A stretch of DNA of 64,000 bases. Origin: Escherichia coli. GTDB taxonomy: Bacteria > Pseudomonadota > Gammaproteobacteria > Enterobacterales > Enterobacteriaceae. The first letter of the stretch is position 1, and every line of letters begins with the position of its first letter. Shown here one piece after another: positions 3,340 to 63,253 of this stretch. Location of the stretch: NCBI RefSeq assembly GCF_030384885.1, contig NZ_CP128613.1. One strand, written 5' to 3'. The translations under genes were made by a program, and so were the position numbers. Below the pieces are notes generated by a model, which did not search any database, was not told the DNA's origin, and saw nothing but the letters and a program-made list of their open reading frames with translations.

Positions 3340-5085
3340 ATGATAAAACCGACGTTTTTACGCCGGGTGGCTATTGCTGCTCTGCTCACAGGAAGTTGTT
3401 TTAGTGCTGTCGCCGCGCCACCTGCGCCGCCGCCAGTCTCGTATGGCGTGGAGGAGGATGTCTTCCATCCGGTACGCGCGAAGCAGGGGATGGTAGCATC
3501 TGTGGACGCCACTGCCACTCAGGTGGGGGTAGATATCCTTAAGCAGGGCGGGAATGCCGTTGATGCTGCCGTGGCAGTGGGCTACGCGCTGGCGGTAACG
3601 CATCCGCAGGCAGGGAATCTGGGCGGCGGCGGTTTTATGCTGATCCGCACTAAAGATGGCAATACCACCGCCATCGATTTCCGCGAAATGGCACCCGCCA
3701 AAGCGACCCGCGATATGTTCCTTGATGATCAGGGCAACCCGGACAGCAAAAAATCTCTCACTTCGCATCTTGCTTCTGGCACACCCGGTACGGTAGCGGG
3801 CTTCTCGTTGGCGCTGGAGAAATACGGCACCATGCCGCTGAACAAAGTTGTGCAGCCTGCGTTTAAACTGGCACGCGATGGTTTTATCGTTAACGATGCG
3901 CTGGCAGACGATCTCAAAACCTACGGCAGTGAAGTGCTACCAAATCACGAAAACAGCAAAGCTATCTTCTGGAAAGAGGGCGAACCGCTGAAAAAGGGCG
4001 ACAAGCTGGTACAGACGAATCTGGCAAAGAGCCTGGAGATGATTGCCGAAAACGGCCCGGATGAATTCTACAAAGGCACGATAGCGGAACAAATCGCCCT
4101 GGAGATGCAGAAAAACGGTGGCTTGATCACTAAAGAAGATTTAGCGGCGTATAAAGCGGTCGAACGTACACCAATAAGTGGCGATTATCGCGGGTATCAG
4201 GTTTACTCCATGCCACCGCCATCTTCCGGCGGGATTCATATCGTGCAGATCCTCAATATTCTGGAAAACTTCGATATGCAGAAATACGGCTTTGGCAGCG
4301 CCGATGCGATGCAAATCATGGCAGAAGCGGAGAAATACGCCTACGCCGACCGCTCGGAATATCTTGGCGACCCGGATTTTGTCAAAGTACCGTGGCAGGC
4401 GCTGACCAATAAAGCCTATGCCAAATCTATTGCCGATCAAATCGATATCAATAAAGCGAAGCCATCCAGCGAAATTCGTCCTGGCAAGCTTGCGCCTTAT
4501 GAGAGTAATCAAACTACCCATTACTCAGTGGTGGATAAAGACGGTAACGCCGTGGCGGTGACCTATACGCTGAACACCACCTTCGGTACGGGCATTGTCG
4601 CGGGCGAGAGCGGTATTTTGCTTAATAATCAGATGGATGATTTCTCCGCCAAACCAGGCGTACCGAACGTTTACGGGCTGGTGGGCGGCGATGCTAACGC
4701 TGTCGGGCCGAATAAACGTCCGCTGTCATCGATGTCACCAACCATTGTGGTGAAAGACGGAAAAACCTGGCTGGTGACCGGTAGCCCTGGCGGAAGCCGA
4801 ATTATCACCACTGTGCTGCAAATGGTGGTGAACAGCATCGATTATGGCATGAATGTCGCCGAAGCGACCAATGCGCCGCGTTTCCACCATCAGTGGTTGC
4901 CGGACGAGCTGCGTGTCGAGAAAGGATTTAGTCCGGATACGCTCAAGCTGCTGGAAGCAAAAGGTCAGAAAGTGGCGCTGAAAGAGGCGATGGGCAGTAC
5001 ACAAAGCATTATGGTTGGGCCTGACGGTGAGTTGTACGGTGCATCCGACCCGCGCTCGGTGGATGATTTAACGGCGGGGTACTAA
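3340..5085 (+). CDS. ggt: gamma-glutamyltranspeptidase
   Basis: Start set at MIKPTFLRR...; signal peptide; conserved GGT motifs (TTHYSVVDKDGNAVAVTYTLN, autoprocessing Thr region). Confidence 0.95.
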   Translation: MIKPTFLRRVAIAALLTGSCFSAVAAPPAPPPVSYGVEEDVFHPVRAKQGMVASVDATATQVGVDILKQGGNAVDAAVAVGYALAVTHPQAGNLGGGGFMLIRTKDGNTTAIDFREMAPAKATRDMFLDDQGNPDSKKSLTSHLASGTPGTVAGFSLALEKYGTMPLNKVVQPAFKLARDGFIVNDALADDLKTYGSEVLPNHENSKAIFWKEGEPLKKGDKLVQTNLAKSLEMIAENGPDEFYKGTIAEQIALEMQKNGGLITKEDLAAYKAVERTPISGDYRGYQVYSMPPPSSGGIHIVQILNILENFDMQKYGFGSADAMQIMAEAEKYAYADRSEYLGDPDFVKVPWQALTNKAYAKSIADQIDINKAKPSSEIRPGKLAPYESNQTTHYSVVDKDGNAVAVTYTLNTTFGTGIVAGESGILLNNQMDDFSAKPGVPNVYGLVGGDANAVGPNKRPLSSMSPTIVVKDGKTWLVTGSPGGSRIITTVLQMVVNSIDYGMNVAEATNAPRFHHQWLPDELRVEKGFSPDTLKLLEAKGQKVALKEAMGSTQSIMVGPDGELYGASDPRSVDDLTAGY

Positions 5086-5091
5086 GGTTAG

Positions 5092-5117
5092 CGGCCCTCT
5101 TCGTGGGAAGAGGGCCG
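5092..5117. terminator. bidirectional hairpin terminator between ggt and yrhB
   Basis: Perfect inverted repeat cggccctcttc-gtgg-gaagagggccg immediately after the ggt stop, between convergent genes. Confidence 0.6.
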
Positions 5118-5122
5118 TATTG

Positions 5123-5407
5123 TCAGGGCAAGCCGAAGGTAGCTTTTTTTATTTCATAATCCTGTAGATATTCTTCCAGCGGCTTTGCCGTTCCCAGCGA
5201 ATGAATTTCACCACTGTCTTTATCAATAATAAAAGGTGCGTTACCAGCTAAGCGCGCGGCCTCATCACCAGTTTCGAGAAATTCTCGTGCTTCGAAACAG
5301 AAATACCAGCCCTGGCTAAAGCGTCCATGTAGAGTAATGACGACGGCGAGATCTGCATCATCAAGGTAATGGTTCGCTTTCGCGAATGCTTCCTGATAAT
5401 TAATCAT
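5123..5407 (-). CDS. yrhB: small heat-stable protein YrhB
   Basis: 94-aa ORF (MINYQEAFAKANHYLDD...) matching my recollection of YrhB. Confidence 0.8.
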   Translation of the reverse strand: MINYQEAFAKANHYLDDADLAVVITLHGRFSQGWYFCFEAREFLETGDEAARLAGNAPFIIDKDSGEIHSLGTAKPLEEYLQDYEIKKATFGLP

Positions 5408-54397: not shown

Positions 54398-54624
54398 CTC
54401 GTTGATTCCCTTTGTCTGTTTGATAATGCGCACATTGGGTATAACGTGATCATATCAACAGAATCAATAATGTTTCGCCGAATAAATTGTATACTTAAGC
54501 TGCTGTTTAATATGCTTTGTAACAATTTAGGCTGAAATTCATACCAGATTTAGCTGGTGACGAACGTAAGCTTTTTTAAGAATACACGCTTACAAATTGT
54601 TGCGAACCTTTGGGAGTACAAAGA

Positions 54625-56693
<2,069 letters not shown>

Positions 56694-56695
56694 AT

Positions 56696-56731
56696 AAAAC
56701 GGGAGGAGAAGGAGCCTCCTGTTTTATTTTG
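56696..56731 (+). terminator. envZ rho-independent terminator
   Basis: aaaacgggagg-agaaggag-cctcctgtttt followed by atttt. Confidence 0.7.
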
Positions 56732-56856
56732 TGCACTCAGTATCTACTGAATGAATACGGTCTCAGACATCGGCACCATACGAAGTAAAGTGTACTGTAA
56801 GCTGATTGCAGGCTAGCGTATCCTGATTAGTAAAAGCACACTAAAGGAATAGCTTG

Positions 56857-58140
56857 ATGCAACTTACCAACGAAGAACAAGTACAGATTGCTCGTATAAA
56901 AGAAAAAATCCCACGCATTGCCGCACTGGATCCTGAATGTAAGTTATTCGGTTCTGAAGGTTGGAAATATCAATGGCCGAAGCCTGCCAGCGAGGCGGAA
57001 ATAGCTTCCTGGGAGAAAAAACATAGCGTCACTTTGCCACGGGAATATCGAATTTTTCTTCGCTATATCGCTAATGGCGGTCCGGCACATGCCTACGGTC
57101 TTGAATCTTTAGGCGGTACAGATATTTATGGCGATATAACAAAAGAAAGCCCTGTACCGCTTTATATGACGCAGCAGGATGTTGATGTGTTGAATGCTGG
57201 CCGTACAGAAGATGATGAAGAATATAGTTTTTTTGACGGCGCATTGACCATTCTCACCCTGGGATGTACTTATGATATTTGCCTGGTGGTGACGGGGCAG
57301 TATCGCGGAAGGTTAATGCTGACTGATGGTGATGAAGATTATCCGTTTGATTTTATATATGATAAAAATTTCCTCAACTGGTATGAACGCTGGCTGGACG
57401 ATTTTATTGCTGGCATGAGTATGAAGGGTTTCGATAGAAGTTTGCCAGGAACGCAAATTCAACTGCGTGAGTGGTTTTTAACTGAGAAAATCCCGGATTT
57501 ACGTAGATCCATTTTATTCTCGCTATGCCGTTTTCCACAGATAGAACCCGAAACTTTTGCCCTTTGGGAACATGTTTGCCGTACAGAGAATGATAAAGAA
57601 TTGTGTGAAGAGGCATTCATAAGATTACGCCAAAAAAAAGTTTCTTGTGCTGCAGATATTTTTCGACTCTATTTTGCAATGTCAGATGAATTACGTGATA
57701 TTGCTATTAAAGATCTCCGTTTTGCCTGTAGAGATAGTGTGGTGAATATTGAGGATTATATTCATTCACTGTTAATAATAATGCCTGAACTTGACGATGA
57801 CACTCTATCCTCAGCTGTCTTTGCTATACGAGAAACAGAGTATAATAAATATGATACTTTTCTGCCGCTTCTCGAACGTATCACTGATGACCGTCAGCAA
57901 ACATTATTGTGGGCGATGAGTAAGGCGCCTGATTTCAATGAAAGCCGAGGATTCGTTGAGTTGGTATTACCGCTTTTTGCATCATCAAAGATGGAGAATG
58001 TAAGGAAGGCTATTTTGTTGCTCATTGAAGTTAAAGATAATCGTATTCCACCATTGGTTGATGAAGCTGCAACTCGTTTCCCTGAACTGACCATTTTACG
58101 AGAAAACTACTATCTCAGGACGTGGGGACATAAGCCATAA
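56857..58140 (+). CDS. islet 2 ORF A: SUKH (SMI1/KNR4)-like N-terminal domain fused to a C-terminal alpha-helical repeat (HEAT/ARM-like) domain
   Basis: ATG at 56857 with AAAGGA Shine-Dalgarno 8 nt upstream; N-terminal motif SWEKKHSVTLPREYRIFLRYIANGG and YDKNFLNWYERWLDDFI typical of SMI1/KNR4; C-terminal half has repeated helix pairs. Confidence 0.7.
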   Translation: MQLTNEEQVQIARIKEKIPRIAALDPECKLFGSEGWKYQWPKPASEAEIASWEKKHSVTLPREYRIFLRYIANGGPAHAYGLESLGGTDIYGDITKESPVPLYMTQQDVDVLNAGRTEDDEEYSFFDGALTILTLGCTYDICLVVTGQYRGRLMLTDGDEDYPFDFIYDKNFLNWYERWLDDFIAGMSMKGFDRSLPGTQIQLREWFLTEKIPDLRRSILFSLCRFPQIEPETFALWEHVCRTENDKELCEEAFIRLRQKKVSCAADIFRLYFAMSDELRDIAIKDLRFACRDSVVNIEDYIHSLLIIMPELDDDTLSSAVFAIRETEYNKYDTFLPLLERITDDRQQTLLWAMSKAPDFNESRGFVELVLPLFASSKMENVRKAILLLIEVKDNRIPPLVDEAATRFPELTILRENYYLRTWGHKP

Positions 58141-58177
58141 ATTAATGGTTCAGAAATGATCTAACGCGGAGAAAAAT

Positions 58178-58708
58178 ATGATCAGGGAACATATTCAGCA
58201 AGCGATAAATAATAGGTTAGCATTTGATGGCCCATTCAATGTTGTTCCTGAACCTGCAAGCACTGCGTTTGATAGCCGGATCCCGACATTGAAAAACGGT
58301 GTCTGGCAGAAGGCCAGCCCTATGTTGCAGGCGCGTTTTGCACATTGTGGACGTTGGTTAAGCGCTACACATGGAAGCTGGCTAAGTATAAGTGACATGG
58401 AAACGCTTTGGCAGGAACACATAGAAGATACGTTTCTTGATGAAATCAAAATGAATGCTGTAGCTTCAAGTGATAATTGGGATAACCATGCCTTGGGACT
58501 ATTTCGTTCTCATCGCCTGTCACTTTTTGCCGGTAGTGATTACAGTTATGAAATGGTTTTTCTCCTTTGGCTAGATAGTACCGTTGAGCCAGAGGTCTGG
58601 GTTTATGACTGCAATGGGGAATCACGTTATAAAGATCTTAATGATTACCTGAATGCATATATTAATGATGACGTAAGCGCCTGTGAGCGCTCTTGGCGAG
58701 TAGAATGA
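58178..58708 (+). CDS. islet 2 ORF B: hypothetical 176-aa cytoplasmic protein
   Basis: ATG with GGAG Shine-Dalgarno; no confident family assignment by eye; the C-terminal EPEVWVYDCNGESRYKDLNDYLNAYIN loosely resembles the C-terminal signature of SUKH-type immunity proteins. Confidence 0.55.
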   Translation: MIREHIQQAINNRLAFDGPFNVVPEPASTAFDSRIPTLKNGVWQKASPMLQARFAHCGRWLSATHGSWLSISDMETLWQEHIEDTFLDEIKMNAVASSDNWDNHALGLFRSHRLSLFAGSDYSYEMVFLLWLDSTVEPEVWVYDCNGESRYKDLNDYLNAYINDDVSACERSWRVE

Positions 58709-59331
58709 ATAGCCCCCCTTGCCCCTTTGATCCACAAACCGCACATTACCTCGGCACAGTGCAAATCCACTACACCTCAACCACCTTCAACGCTGCCGTT
58801 AAGCATTATACCTATCACATTAAAAAGCGTTTTAAAGGGGTTAAATGGGGAATTGGTACCGCTGGCTTATTGGCTATATTGCCCATGATCCCACAATGGT
58901 TGAAACCTTCTCATGACTTTAAACTCAACGCAATCAGTACGTTAATTCTTCTATTAATGTTGCCACTCCTCTTATCAATGTTCCTGTTAATCAGCAGAAG
59001 AATTAACGATTTTAAGTCAAAAACAAAGCAAGTTACTTTTACGAAACCCGTGCGTTATGCGTTTTATTTCGAGGGGATTGTTTTTTATGAATCTCATCAG
59101 CAGGGCATACTTCGCTGGGAAGATTTTTATGGCATTGAGTATGAAGAAGATTATTTGTGGCTTTTTCTGCATTTACCGAAGAGTTTTCCCAGAGAAGCGA
59201 CGAAAGCGTTTTGCGATATTTTCATTCCCACCAGTGCGATAAAAGCGCAGCCTGAACTGGATACGTTTTTTCGTGAAACACGCCACTCGCTGGATTATCT
59301 GTTTGTCCCGTTTAATTCTGACAGAAAATAA
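58705..59331 (+). CDS. islet 2 ORF C: small membrane protein, possibly YcxB-like (two TM helices plus a PH-like domain)
   Basis: ATG at 58705 overlaps the ORF B stop (ATGA); two hydrophobic helices (GIGTAGLLAILPMIPQWL; ISTLILLLMLPLLLSMFLLI) followed by a soluble domain. Confidence 0.6.
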   Translation: MNSPPCPFDPQTAHYLGTVQIHYTSTTFNAAVKHYTYHIKKRFKGVKWGIGTAGLLAILPMIPQWLKPSHDFKLNAISTLILLLMLPLLLSMFLLISRRINDFKSKTKQVTFTKPVRYAFYFEGIVFYESHQQGILRWEDFYGIEYEEDYLWLFLHLPKSFPREATKAFCDIFIPTSAIKAQPELDTFFRETRHSLDYLFVPFNSDRK

Positions 59332-59334
59332 CAT

Positions 59335-59362
59335 ATCCCCCGTATCTGGTGAAACGGGGGAT
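59335..59362 (-). terminator. pck rho-independent terminator (also ends islet 2)
   Basis: atcccccgt-atctggtgaa-acgggggat perfect stem; T-rich on the minus strand after the hairpin. Confidence 0.7.
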
Positions 59363-59383
59363 TTCGTCGCTTAACTTATCGGA

Positions 59384-61006
59384 TTACAGTTTTGGACCAG
59401 CCGCTACCAGCGCGGCACCCGCTGGGGTGTCGGTGTATTTATCGAAGTTGTCGATAAACAGTTTCGCCAGAGTTTCGGCTTTTTCCTGCCACTGTTCAGG
59501 AGAAGCGTAGGTGTTACGCGGATCGAGGATCTTAGTGTCTACGCCCGGCAGTTCAGTCGGGATTGCCAGGTTAAACATCGGCAAAGTGAAGGTTTCTGCG
59601 TTATCCAGCGAACCGTTGAGGATGGCGTCGATAATGGCGCGGGTATCTTTAATGGAGATACGTTTGCCAGTACCGTTCCAGCCAGTGTTAACCAGATATG
59701 CCTGCGCACCCGCCGCTTGCATACGTTTCACCAGCACTTCTGCGTACTGAGTTGGGTGCAGCGACAGGAACGCCGCGCCGAAGCAAGCGGAGAAGGTTGG
59801 CGTCGGTTCGGTGATGCCACGTTCAGTACCGGCCAGTTTGGCGGTGAAGCCAGAGAGGAAGTGGTACTGAGTTTGATCGGCAGTCAGGCGAGAAACCGGC
59901 GGCAGCACACCAAAGGCGTCTGCGGTCAGGAAGATAACTTTAGTTGCGTGGCCCGCTTTGGAAACCGGTTTAACGATGTTATCGATGTGATAGATCGGAT
60001 AAGAAACGCGGGTGTTCTCGGTTTTTGAACCATCGTCAAAATCGATAGTGCCATCTTCACGTACGGTGACGTTTTCCAGCAGCGCATCGCGACGGATAGC
60101 GTTGTAGATTTCAGGTTCCGCTTCTTTCGACAGCTTGATGGTTTTCGCGTAGCAGCCGCCTTCGAAGTTAAACACGCCGTCGTCATCCCAGCCGTGCTCG
60201 TCATCGCCAATCAGGCGACGTTTCGGGTCGGTGGAAAGGGTGGTTTTACCGGTGCCGGAAAGGCCAAAGAACACCGCAACATCGCCTTTCTCGCCAACGT
60301 TGGCGGAGCAGTGCATAGAAGCGATGCCTTTCAGCGGCAGCAGGTAGTTCATCATCGAGAACATCCCTTTCTTCATTTCGCCGCCGTACCAGGTACCGCC
60401 AATCAACTGCATACGCTCGGTCAGGTTAAACGCCACGAAGTTTTCAGAGTTCAGCCCCTGCTCTTTCCACTGGGGGTTAGTGCATTTTGCGCCGTTCATA
60501 ACGATAAAGTCAGGTTTAAAACCAGCCAGCTCTTCATCGCTCGGGCGAATAAACATGTTTTTGACAAAATGCGCCTGCCAGGCCACTTCGGTGATGAAAC
60601 GGACGGAAAGACGCGTGTCTGGGTTCGCACCACAGAAAGCGTCGACAACGAACAGACGTTTGCCAGAAAGCTGTTTGGTCACCAGGCCCTTCAGATGCTG
60701 CCAGGTTTCCGGAGAGAGAGGTTTGTTGTCGTTCTTACCTTTGCCTTTATCAGCCCACCAGAAGGTATCGCGAGTGGTATCGTCACGGACGATATACTTA
60801 TCTTTTGGTGAGCGACCGGTGAATATACCGGTATCGACGGCAACGGCACCCAGATTAGTTAACACCCCGCGCTCATAACCTGTCAGGCTCGGATCGAGCT
60901 CTTCCTGATACAGCAGGTCGTAGCTTGGGTTGTAAACGATATCATGTACGTCACTGATACCATAAGCCTCGAGTTCTTGCGGGGTCAAACCATTGTTAAC
61001 GCGCAT
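59384..61006 (-). CDS. pck: phosphoenolpyruvate carboxykinase (ATP)
   Basis: Start set at [17 protein letters not shown]; kinase-1a motif GLSGTGKTT; 540 aa. Confidence 0.96.
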
Positions 61007-61384: not shown

Positions 61385-63109
61385 ATGGATAACGTTGAAC
61401 TTTCACCCGCAACACGCTGGGGGATGATTGTTACCGGATTACTTCAGGGTCTAGTTTGCTACCTACTGATCGCCTGGCTTTCCGGAAAAAATCACAGTTG
61501 GATTGTTTATGGCGTGCCTGCGACCGTCGCGTTTTCATCCGTTTTACTCTTCTCCGTGATCTCCTTTAAACAGAAGCGCCTTTGGGGATGGCTGGCGCTG
61601 GTGTTTATTGCCACGCTGGGAATGAGCGGCTGGCTGAAGTGGCAAACTGATGGCATGAACCCCTGGAGAGCTGAAAAGGCGCTTTGGGATTTTGGTTGCT
61701 ATCTGCTGCTGATGGCAATGTTGTTGCTACCGTGGATACAACAAAGCCTTCGCATCCGCAATGACAGTAGCCGCTATCGCTATTTTTACCAGTCAGTATG
61801 GCATAACGTACTTATATTACTGGTGATTTTTCTCGCCAATGGCCTGACGTGGCTGGTACTTTTACTGTGGGGCGAGTTGTTTAAACTTGTTGGCATCACG
61901 TTTTTCAAAACGCTCTTTTTTGCAACCGACTGGTTTATTTATCTCACGTTAGGTCTGGTTACCGCACTGGCGGTGATCCTCGCGCGTACACAGTCACGTT
62001 TAATCGACTCTATTCAAAAGTTGTTCACGTTAATCGCCACGGGGTTGCTGCCGTTAGTATCATTGCTAACCCTGATGTTTATCATCACCCTGCCGTTTAC
62101 GGGCCTGAGCGCGATTTCTCGCCACATCTCCGCCGCCGGGTTGCTGTTGACGCTGGCCTTTTTGCAATTGATTTTAATGGCTATTGTCCGCAATCCGCAA
62201 AAAGCGTCACTTCCCTGGACGGGGCCGTTGCGTTGCCTGATTAAAACCGCTCTGCTGGCTGCTCCGCTGTATGTGTTCGTCGCCGCCTGGGCGTTATGGC
62301 TGCGGGTCGCTCAGTACGGCTGGACTGTCGACCGCTTGCAGGGCGCGCTGGCGGTGCTGGTGTTACTGATATGGTCGCTGGGGTATTTTGTCAGTATCGT
62401 CTGGCGTAAAGGGCAAAACCCTCTTGTTCTTCAGGGCAAAGTGAACCTTGCGGTTTCGTTATTGGTGTTGGTAATACTGGTGCTTCTTAATTCGCCGGTG
62501 CTGGATAGTATGCGCATTAGTGTGAACAGTCATATGGCACGTTATCAGAGCGGCAAGAACACGCCAGATCAGGTAAGTCTCTACATGCTCGAACAGAACG
62601 GTCGCTATGGACGTGCGGCGCTTGAGTCGCTGAAAAGCGATGCCGAGTATATGAAAGACCCGAAACGCGCACGGGATCTGCTGATGACGTTAGATGGAGA
62701 GCAACATCTTCAGGAACAGGTATCGGAAAAAGTATTAGCCGAAAATGTGTTAATTGCCCCAGGCTCTGGCAAACCGGATACGGCATTCTGGTCGGCCTTA
62801 ATCCAGGATCGCTATAACGTGATGACCTGTATTGAAAAAGACGCCTGCGTACTGGTCGAGCAAGATCTGAATAGTGATGGTCAGGTGGAGCGGATCCTGT
62901 TTGCTTTTAATGATGACAGAGTCATTGTCTATGGCTTTGACCCGGCCAGAAAAGAATGGGACGCGCTTGATATGAGTTTACTTCCGCGCCAAATAACGAA
63001 AGAAAAATTACTCGCTGCTGCGAAGGATGGAAAACTGGGGACGAAGCCTAAAGCATGGTGTGATCTGACGGTAGATGGTGAAACGCTGGAAATAAACCTA
63101 AGTAAGTGA
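61385..63109 (+). CDS. yhgE: polytopic inner membrane protein YhgE
   Basis: 574 aa; multiple TM helices in the N-terminal two thirds. Confidence 0.85.
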
Positions 63110-63174
63110 CAATGCGTATTTGATTTTTTATCGGATACGACGCTTTATCTTACCAACAATAACTTGCGAATTAT

Positions 63175-63212
63175 TGCGTAGGCCTGGTAAGCGCAGCGCA
63201 TCAGGCCATTAC
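63175..63212. repeat. REP element
   Basis: gcgtaggcctggtaagcgcagcgcatcaggcc, REP-type palindrome between yhgE and hslO. Confidence 0.7.
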
Positions 63213-63253
63213 GTCGTAAAATCCGGCAGAGCACTCTCTGCCGGACATACTCA

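Follow-up and report, generated by a model that had tools for sequence, protein, structure and literature searches.

The envZ-pckA terminator region of Escherichia as a multi-allelic cassette slot, and the putative toxin-less immunity array it holds in cryptic clade I

The intergenic region that separates envZ from pckA, two convergent core genes, was analysed in a 64,000-nt stretch of Escherichia coli contig NZ_CP128613.1 (assembly GCF_030384885.1), hereafter the window, which carries at this site a three-gene islet, A-B-C. The window is a 100% match to NZ_CP027579.1, E. coli 2013C-4282, a strain named together with EC42405 as Escherichia cryptic clade I (PMC10100065). On the left, envZ (55341-56693, + strand, RefSeq annotation of NZ_CP027579.1) runs into the native envZ/pckA hairpin (56694-56727), at which comparison of junctions places the left boundary of a variable segment of 2,658 bp (56726-59383, + strand). 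Within this segment a 131-nt non-coding leader (56726-56856) is followed by three open reading frames (ORFs) on the + strand: ORF A (56857-58140, 427 residues), ORF B (58178-58708, 176 residues) after a gap of 37 nt, and ORF C (58705-59331, 208 residues), whose start codon overlaps the stop codon of ORF B as ATGA. A second hairpin (59335-59362), borne by the cassette, is the terminator for ORF C and pckA, and variable sequence starts directly past the stop codon of pckA itself (59384-61006, − strand, RefSeq annotation), envZ and pckA being the left and right homology arms of the site. The coding fraction of the variable segment is 92%, and there is therefore no space in it for gene remnants.

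The limits of the segment follow from comparison with empty sites such as that of K-12, in which one hairpin, serving both convergent genes, follows envZ and is separated from the pckA stop codon by a 44-nt spacer. Homology to empty sites ends at T56725 and restarts at the pckA stop codon, which sets the variable segment at 56726-59383 rather than the 56732-59334 of the first-pass annotation and makes it a replacement of 44 bp (in K-12), not a clean insertion. The K-12 spacer was considered as a remnant or deletion scar of the islet, but its local alignment score was reached by 173 of 300 shuffles against the whole islet and by 804 of 1000 against the leader, and the idea was rejected. Base composition sets the islet apart from its surroundings, both overall (41.6% GC, against 53-57% in the flanks) and at third codon positions (GC3 of 34-44%, against 61-67%).

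The first-pass annotation had the insert bounded by two native terminator hairpins, of which only the envZ-side one proves native. This left hairpin is common to all Escherichia alleles examined, whether empty or holding a toxin-antitoxin (TA) pair, an IS200 element or a cassette, and is missing from one Salmonella locus (L031). The pckA-side hairpin travels with the cassette: together with the next 21 nt it is absent from empty sites (K-12) and from the TA and IS200 alleles, and it accompanies the gene C cassettes of clade I, E. albertii, E. coli strain A30 and Salmonella L022. Salmonella L031 has another pckA-side hairpin and other junction sequences on both sides, and the nadS-relE cassette brings a different pckA-side hairpin of its own. 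The right hairpin folds at −18.3 kcal/mol on the + strand and −18.6 kcal/mol on the − strand. For the left hairpin, the predicted RNA fold is −17.3 kcal/mol in the window, −20.3 in K-12 and −23.2 in E. albertii; the lower stability in the window, −17.3 against about −20 to −23 kcal/mol when K-12, A30 and E. albertii are folded, follows from substitutions in the envZ terminator stem at 56700-56721, which are not found in three sister clade I strains.

ORF A pairs an N-terminal SMI1/KNR4 (SUKH-1) domain, matched by PF09346 at 29.6 bits (cutoff 25.4), with a HEAT-like C-terminal half, and its homologues at 29-46% identity bear PF13646 HEAT_2. E. albertii shares its ATG at 56857, but not an upstream TTG. 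ORF B has a predicted SUKH-superfamily fold, with fold matches that include the immunity proteins Tdi1, YobK and Atu4351; at E<=10 a Pfam search returned only the irrelevant DUF3884 (0.12) and no SUKH model, and a profile search of the PDB returned nothing, so that ORF B is placed in the SUKH superfamily by predicted fold only. ORF C is predicted to combine two transmembrane (TM) helices with a C-terminal PH-like domain, and was considered as a possible member of the YcxB / bacterial PH-domain membrane proteins (PF14317). Its ATG at 58705 is supported by residues 8-18, which are conserved across 15 homologues; the PGAP start in this strain is GTG 58759. Searches of all three products against NCBIfam, PADLOC and PDB sequences gave nothing significant, the weak PADLOC match of ORF C to PycTM (E=0.02) included. 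The ratio of nonsynonymous to synonymous divergence (dN/dS) is 0.17 for ORF A and 0.17-0.4 across the cassette, against 0.01 in the flanks (envZ 0.01 versus E. albertii).

Both the A and the C families are rare, with 24 matches to ORF A in 5.8 billion sequences and 15 relatives of ORF C among 1.84 billion representative proteins, the latter almost only at envZ-pckA. Elsewhere, relatives of ORF A are solitary between core genes, lying between yoaA and yoaB in other E. coli and beside dkgA in Klebsiella aerogenes and Superficieibacter. Such ORF A relatives (39-62% identity) and distant C relatives are lone genes wedged between unrelated core genes, never beside a toxin and with no integrase or insertion sequence (IS) nearby, save for an RpnA-like Transposase_31 gene about 4 kb off in Superficieibacter. 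The gene that follows the ORF A homologue in Superficieibacter was considered as a homologue of ORF B and is not one. The A and C families seem to spread generally as single-gene intergenic inserts.

ORF A is annotated at full length in 18 of 18 clade I genomes. In E. albertii it has been inactivated independently, by a nonsense codon at position 211 in the type strain (locus L029, 5099-6385) and by a frameshift that splits it into 295 and 132 residues in three other assemblies (loci including L024, 4681-5963, and L020, 4151-5436); ORFs B and C are intact in the E. albertii strains with a broken ORF A. A further stretch of the islet, 58600-59000, is hypervariable. This patch runs from the end of ORF B through the N-terminal part of ORF C and its first TM helix, and its divergence is 17-25% from E. 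albertii and 3.5-5% among clade I strains, in which the rest of the islet diverges by 0-1%.

The distribution of the islet was surveyed in 5,426 complete E. coli genomes, of which 18 carry it, in every case at >=99% identity, in single copy and at envZ-pckA. The carriers comprise all 18 cryptic clade I genomes, and the other complete genomes of the survey are without it. Two core segments to either side mark out the same group: a malQ segment 15 kb to the left is found at >=99% in 17 of the 18 carriers and at <=96.4% in the rest of the genomes, and for a segment of nudE-mrcA, some 9 kb to the right, the top-ranked genomes are exactly the 18 carriers. For this genome the islet is no sporadic or recent acquisition: it is present in 18/18 clade I genomes, and the two independent core markers both rank its carriers first. 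The data show the A-B-C allele to be fixed and vertically inherited in cryptic clade I, and the event that established it is older than the diversification of the clade. Within clade I the islet is 0-1% divergent, and the flanks there contain patches of 2-6%.

Comparison of the site across genomes reveals that envZ-pckA is a multi-allelic cassette slot in the terminator region of two convergent core genes. The same junctions frame six or more different cargoes across Escherichia and one Salmonella lineage, without any mobility gene. The site is empty in 21 of 30 evenly sampled E. coli genomes, a nadS-relE TA pair fills it in 1,331 E. coli genomes, and most of the remaining E. coli genomes appear to be empty. 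At least one E. coli genome, ETEC1738, has an IS200/IS605 copy between the envZ stop codon and the common hairpin (locus L005, 3395-4180), which makes this terminator region a target of genuine mobile elements as well. We found no literature that describes envZ-pckA as a hotspot or cassette site.

The alleles related to A-B-C vary around gene C, a relative of which is present in every related array. E. albertii has the arrangement envZ-A-B-C-pckA, in which several strains have ORF A broken by a frameshift or a nonsense codon. In Salmonella enterica the order is envZ-H-CdiI_5-(91 aa)-CdiI_5 fragment-C-pckA, where H is a HEAT-repeat gene of about 145 aa and the CdiI_5 genes occupy the position of ORF B. 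Escherichia sp. MOD1-EC7003 and a Shigella-labelled genome have envZ-H-B'-C'-pckA, and E. whittamii has envZ-(ERIC-like element)-H..C-pckA. Fusion of HEAT and C modules takes both orders. The baboon strain E. coli A30, alone in this among the 5,426 genomes, holds a single 346-aa HEAT::C gene (locus L004, 4566-5606), with a HEAT module at the N-terminus and 84% identity to ORF C over the C-terminal 201 residues; the HEAT::C order recurs in Escherichia sp. E4742 and E. whittamii. A second Salmonella, GCA_917097915.1 (locus L031, 6001-7098), has the reverse order, envZ-[C::HEAT]-pckA, and is the one array in which gene C does not adjoin pckA, the HEAT half lying nearer to it. The HEAT module of A30 was considered as a relative of the C-terminal half of ORF A, and BLASTP found nothing to connect them. 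In E. whittamii (locus L028, about 4949-5215) the short leader that links the envZ hairpin to the HEAT gene is interrupted by an inserted element of about 260 nt with ATGTAAGCTCCTGGGGATTCAC, similar to the enterobacterial repetitive intergenic consensus/intergenic repeat unit (ERIC/IRU) and identified as ERIC-like by the ERIC primer sequences. No toxin gene was seen in any of these related arrays, and envZ and pckA are the sole flanks in the window.

Two lines of evidence bear on how alleles change places. The first is a disagreement between the synonymous divergence (dS) of the cassette and that of its flanks. Measured from the window to E. albertii, dS is 0.18 for A, 0.20 for B and 0.33 for C, with 0.45 for envZ, 0.36-0.40 for pckA and 0.26 for ompR; to Salmonella it is 0.19 for C against 0.5-0.9 in the flanks; to MOD1-EC7003 it is 0.92 for C and saturated for B against 0.33-0.37; and to E. 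whittamii it is 0.28 for C against 0.30-0.32. By this measure some cassette genes are much younger, and others much older, than the surrounding chromosome, and such a mismatch in both directions is the signature of allelic replacement. The second is a stacked allele, A-B-C-pck'-'envZ-hairpin-nadS-relE-pckA, found in the E. albertii type strain (NBRC 107761; locus L029, 7590-8050) and in E. albertii CP117637.1 (locus L021, 6693-7101), of which only the type strain has envZ directly upstream of ORF A, fimbrial genes taking that place in CP117637. A-B-C and nadS-relE are separated by 56 nt from the end of pckA, a 73-nt internal piece of pckA, and the final ~245 nt of envZ with its hairpin, the envZ fragment being 97.8% identical to the strain's own envZ. 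These pck'/'envZ scars are a direct footprint: two alleles were joined via their flanks.

Exchange by recombination in the flanks is thus a well supported reading at the level of the locus. The first-pass annotation had proposed acquisition by homologous recombination of flanking core DNA, and for the locus this is supported by the range of cargoes, the dS values and the scars; in this genome, however, the islet is fixed in the lineage and the flanks have no visible import tract. Other loci exchanged in this way are known as replacement islands, among them the O-antigen locus, which lies between galF and gnd. The envZ-pckA slot resembles them in having unrelated cargoes at identical junctions, no mobility signature and cargo divergence incongruent with that of the flanks, the phylogenies of the two disagreeing. 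It is unlike them in being far smaller (0-2.7 kb), in lying within a convergent terminator region, and in having a pckA-side terminator that is borne by the cargo.

The absence of an IS, integrase, tRNA and obvious direct repeats, remarked on in the first-pass annotation, was borne out by searches for domains, tRNAs, shared k-mers and plasmid or phage matches. Pfam, NCBIfam and PADLOC detect no IS, integrase or transposase in the islet, the SMI1/KNR4 domain of ORF A being their sole match, and a tRNA search of the islet found none. The longest k-mer common to the two junctions, direct or inverted, is 7 nt, a length equalled or exceeded in 115 of 500 shuffles, so that no flanking repeat or attachment-site-like sequence stands out from chance at the junctions. 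A second copy of any part of the islet was not found in the 18 carrier genomes, a search at blastn sensitivity of 72,556 plasmid and 50,697 phage records gave no match, and an Rfam scan of the region returned sub-threshold noise only. The sequence GTGCAC at 56731-56736 resembles the IS200 end of ETEC1738, and is no more than a 6-nt palindrome. The islet shares with classical genomic islands a foreign base composition and presence/absence polymorphism, but unlike them has no integrase or transposase, no tRNA or att target and no flanking direct repeats.

The first-pass annotation had placed the promoter of the cassette in the non-coding DNA upstream of ORF A. The leader, 56726-56856, is indeed the only such DNA, and contains a ribosome-binding site (AAGGA, 56844-56848), but a promoter within it found no support: no convincing sigma-70 promoter is present, and a consensus scan of the leader gave no site on the + strand. 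The best sigma-70-like candidate, CAGACA (56764-56769) and TAAAGT (56786-56791) separated by N16, has a position weight matrix (PWM) score of 6.0, about what chance gives, the median over random 190-nt stretches of the window being 5.6. In sister clade I strains and in E. albertii the corresponding sequence is TTCAGA-N18-TAAAGT, with a PWM score of 7.9, still under the 90th percentile of 8.45, and the window strain has a T-to-C change in that -35 element. Clade I and E. albertii scarcely differ over the block 56783-56822, in which TAAAGT falls and where a transcription start is best sought. A leader promoter for ORF A is therefore plausible but unsupported in the window strain. In alleles of the H type the first ATG falls about 33 nt past the envZ hairpin, which leaves no room for a separate promoter, and these arrays probably depend on read-through from ompR-envZ. 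A-B-C would be transcribed from a weak promoter in the leader, by read-through past the envZ terminator, or in both ways, and the weaker envZ hairpin of the window together with the H-type spacing points towards read-through.

Taken together, we consider it fairly likely that the islet is one allele of the slot, that it is a toxin-less operon of orphan immunity genes, and that it belongs to a set of alleles exchanged by recombination in the flanks. A-B-C would be a tightly packed operon comparable to a small polyimmunity locus, and its products, to judge from their sequences, are probably immunity-like proteins. As orphan immunity proteins they would pre-emptively neutralise the polymorphic toxins of competitors, such as those of contact-dependent inhibition (CDI), Rhs and type VI secretion system (T6SS) origin. 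The cassette has no mobility machinery of its own, and the comparison of loci shows alleles to be swapped, stacked or lost through recombination in the envZ/ompR and pckA flanks.

Polyimmunity loci consist of closely spaced tandem immunity genes on one strand, SUKH being the commonest family; they contain no toxin and differ from strain to strain. When such a locus is small, with two or three genes, polyimmunity proteins made by fusion are often among its products, and the listed immunity modules include HEAT repeats and SUKH fusions (PMC3482391). The islet is alike in its tandem genes of an immunity superfamily (A by Pfam, B by fold), which share one orientation with small gaps, in its SUKH-HEAT fusion, in its lack of a toxin and in its strain-variable gene content. 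It is unlike these loci in having only two or three genes and no adjacent recombinase, and in ORF C, which belongs to no immunity family listed there and is constant across alleles. The toxin-less, strain-variable immunity arrays of Bacteroidales, the acquired interbacterial defence (AID) or orphan immunity clusters, which would protect against the effectors of other strains, are also comparable; unlike the islet, which sits in a fixed chromosomal slot between core genes and has no recombinase, they are reported to sit on mobile elements with recombinases (bioRxiv 10.1101/471110; 10.1101/2025.05.03.651265). An orphan-immunity role is favoured because the features of polyimmunity loci that can be read from sequence fit the islet, and because CdiI_5 genes stand at the place of ORF B in Salmonella.

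Several observations weigh against this interpretation. No cognate toxin for A, B or C was identified, ORF C matches no recognisable immunity family, and the distant relatives of C and A are solitary between core genes rather than neighbours of a toxin. The constancy of ORF C and its fusion to HEAT modules in both domain orders could mean that the products form a functional complex and are not independent immunity genes, and ORF A is a pseudogene in several E. albertii strains. As for exchange by flank recombination, the dS values are estimates from 176-540 codons of a region that is mosaic, and the flanks of the window show no import tract, the whole 40 kb being 2-8% divergent from K-12. That no local tract can be seen follows from the high divergence of clade I everywhere, as comparisons with K-12, A30 and a TA strain indicate; single-nucleotide polymorphisms beside the A30 cassette are likewise evenly spread relative to K-12, at about 2%, and would be informative only against a close cassette-free relative.

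A reading that we regard as possible, if rather less probable, is that an array anchored by gene C is ancestral to Escherichia at this site, the empty state of K-12 and the TA state having arisen by deletion or replacement, so that nothing was inserted here at all. Gene C is indeed found at envZ-pckA in E. albertii, E. whittamii, MOD1-EC7003, clade I and an E. ruysiae-like strain, and the islet is fixed in clade I. The dS of C against E. albertii (0.33) and E. whittamii (0.28) equals that of the flanks (0.36-0.45 and 0.30-0.32, respectively), which fits old vertical descent and makes loss a possible origin of the empty K-12 site, the spacer of which has no similarity to any cassette. Against this, the GC3 gap between islet and flanks shows no amelioration, which argues for continuing horizontal turnover. 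Moreover, the dS of A and B is half the flank value, the dS of C against Salmonella is so far under that of the flanks that horizontal exchange is certain, and no match came from the genomes representing the species E. coli, E. fergusonii, E. marmotae and E. ruysiae.

It is unlikely, in our estimate, that the genes do not encode immunity proteins and form a single functional unit, in which C would be a membrane-anchored sensor or effector served by exchangeable SUKH, HEAT or CdiI-like recognition modules, with a role in defence or at the envelope that is possibly tied to the EnvZ/OmpR transcript. What suggests it is the presence of C in every allele, adjoining pckA everywhere except at the Salmonella C::HEAT locus, while the other modules vary; the fusion of HEAT and C in both orders, as HEAT::C in A30 and C::HEAT in Salmonella L031; the first gene of H-type alleles some 33 nt after the envZ hairpin, suggestive of co-transcription with ompR-envZ; and the weak PycTM match of C. 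However, polyimmunity proteins typically join immunity domains that are unrelated to one another (PMC3482391), none of the modules was found to have an enzymatic or effector domain, no PADLOC match is significant, and the decay of ORF A alone in E. albertii, with B and C intact, fits independent genes better than an obligate complex. Similarly doubtful is the more specific proposal that the arrays are an undescribed modular system in which C is the constant membrane part, the SUKH, HEAT and CdiI-like modules confer specificity, and the whole forms a 3' extension of ompR-envZ. If this were true, the envZ-pckA arrays would amount to something beyond an assortment of separate orphan immunity genes.

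Finally, the possibility that the islet is the remnant of a self-mobile element (an integrase island, an IS composite or a cassette borne by a miniature inverted-repeat transposable element) minus its mobility gene is largely refuted and most improbable, for although its base composition is foreign and the site accepts mobile DNA, as the IS200 of ETEC1738 and the ERIC-like element in the E. whittamii leader attest, the islet has no tRNA and no direct or inverted repeats beyond chance, leaves no space for pseudogenes around three intact ORFs, is single-copy in each carrier genome without plasmid or phage match, and has the same junctions as unrelated cargoes.

Two further stretches of the neighbourhood have unusual divergence. 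The yhgE-hslO intergenic region (62732-63231) is the most divergent of the neighbourhood, differing by 9-13% from other E. coli, with an indel, and by 3-6% even within clade I. The greB-ompR intergenic region with the 5' end of ompR (54401-54700) differs from E. albertii by 0-1%, against 8-13% for envZ, which lies 1 kb downstream; the low divergence of this patch reflects either strong constraint or a patch of inter-species recombination.

The islet is therefore to be seen as a lineage marker of Escherichia cryptic clade I, held in common with E. albertii, and not as a sporadic recent insert. The site in which it lies is a previously undescribed cassette slot, at which IS elements, arrays of immunity-like genes and TA pairs take each other's place with no mobility gene involved. 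As each cassette brings its own pckA terminator, alleles may differ in the 3' end formation of pckA and in envZ read-through. The slot would offer a compact natural system in which to follow the spread of small competition and defence cassettes by flank recombination, and the islet itself provides, in A, B and C, three uncharacterised candidate immunity proteins against the CDI, Rhs and T6SS effectors of enteric bacteria.

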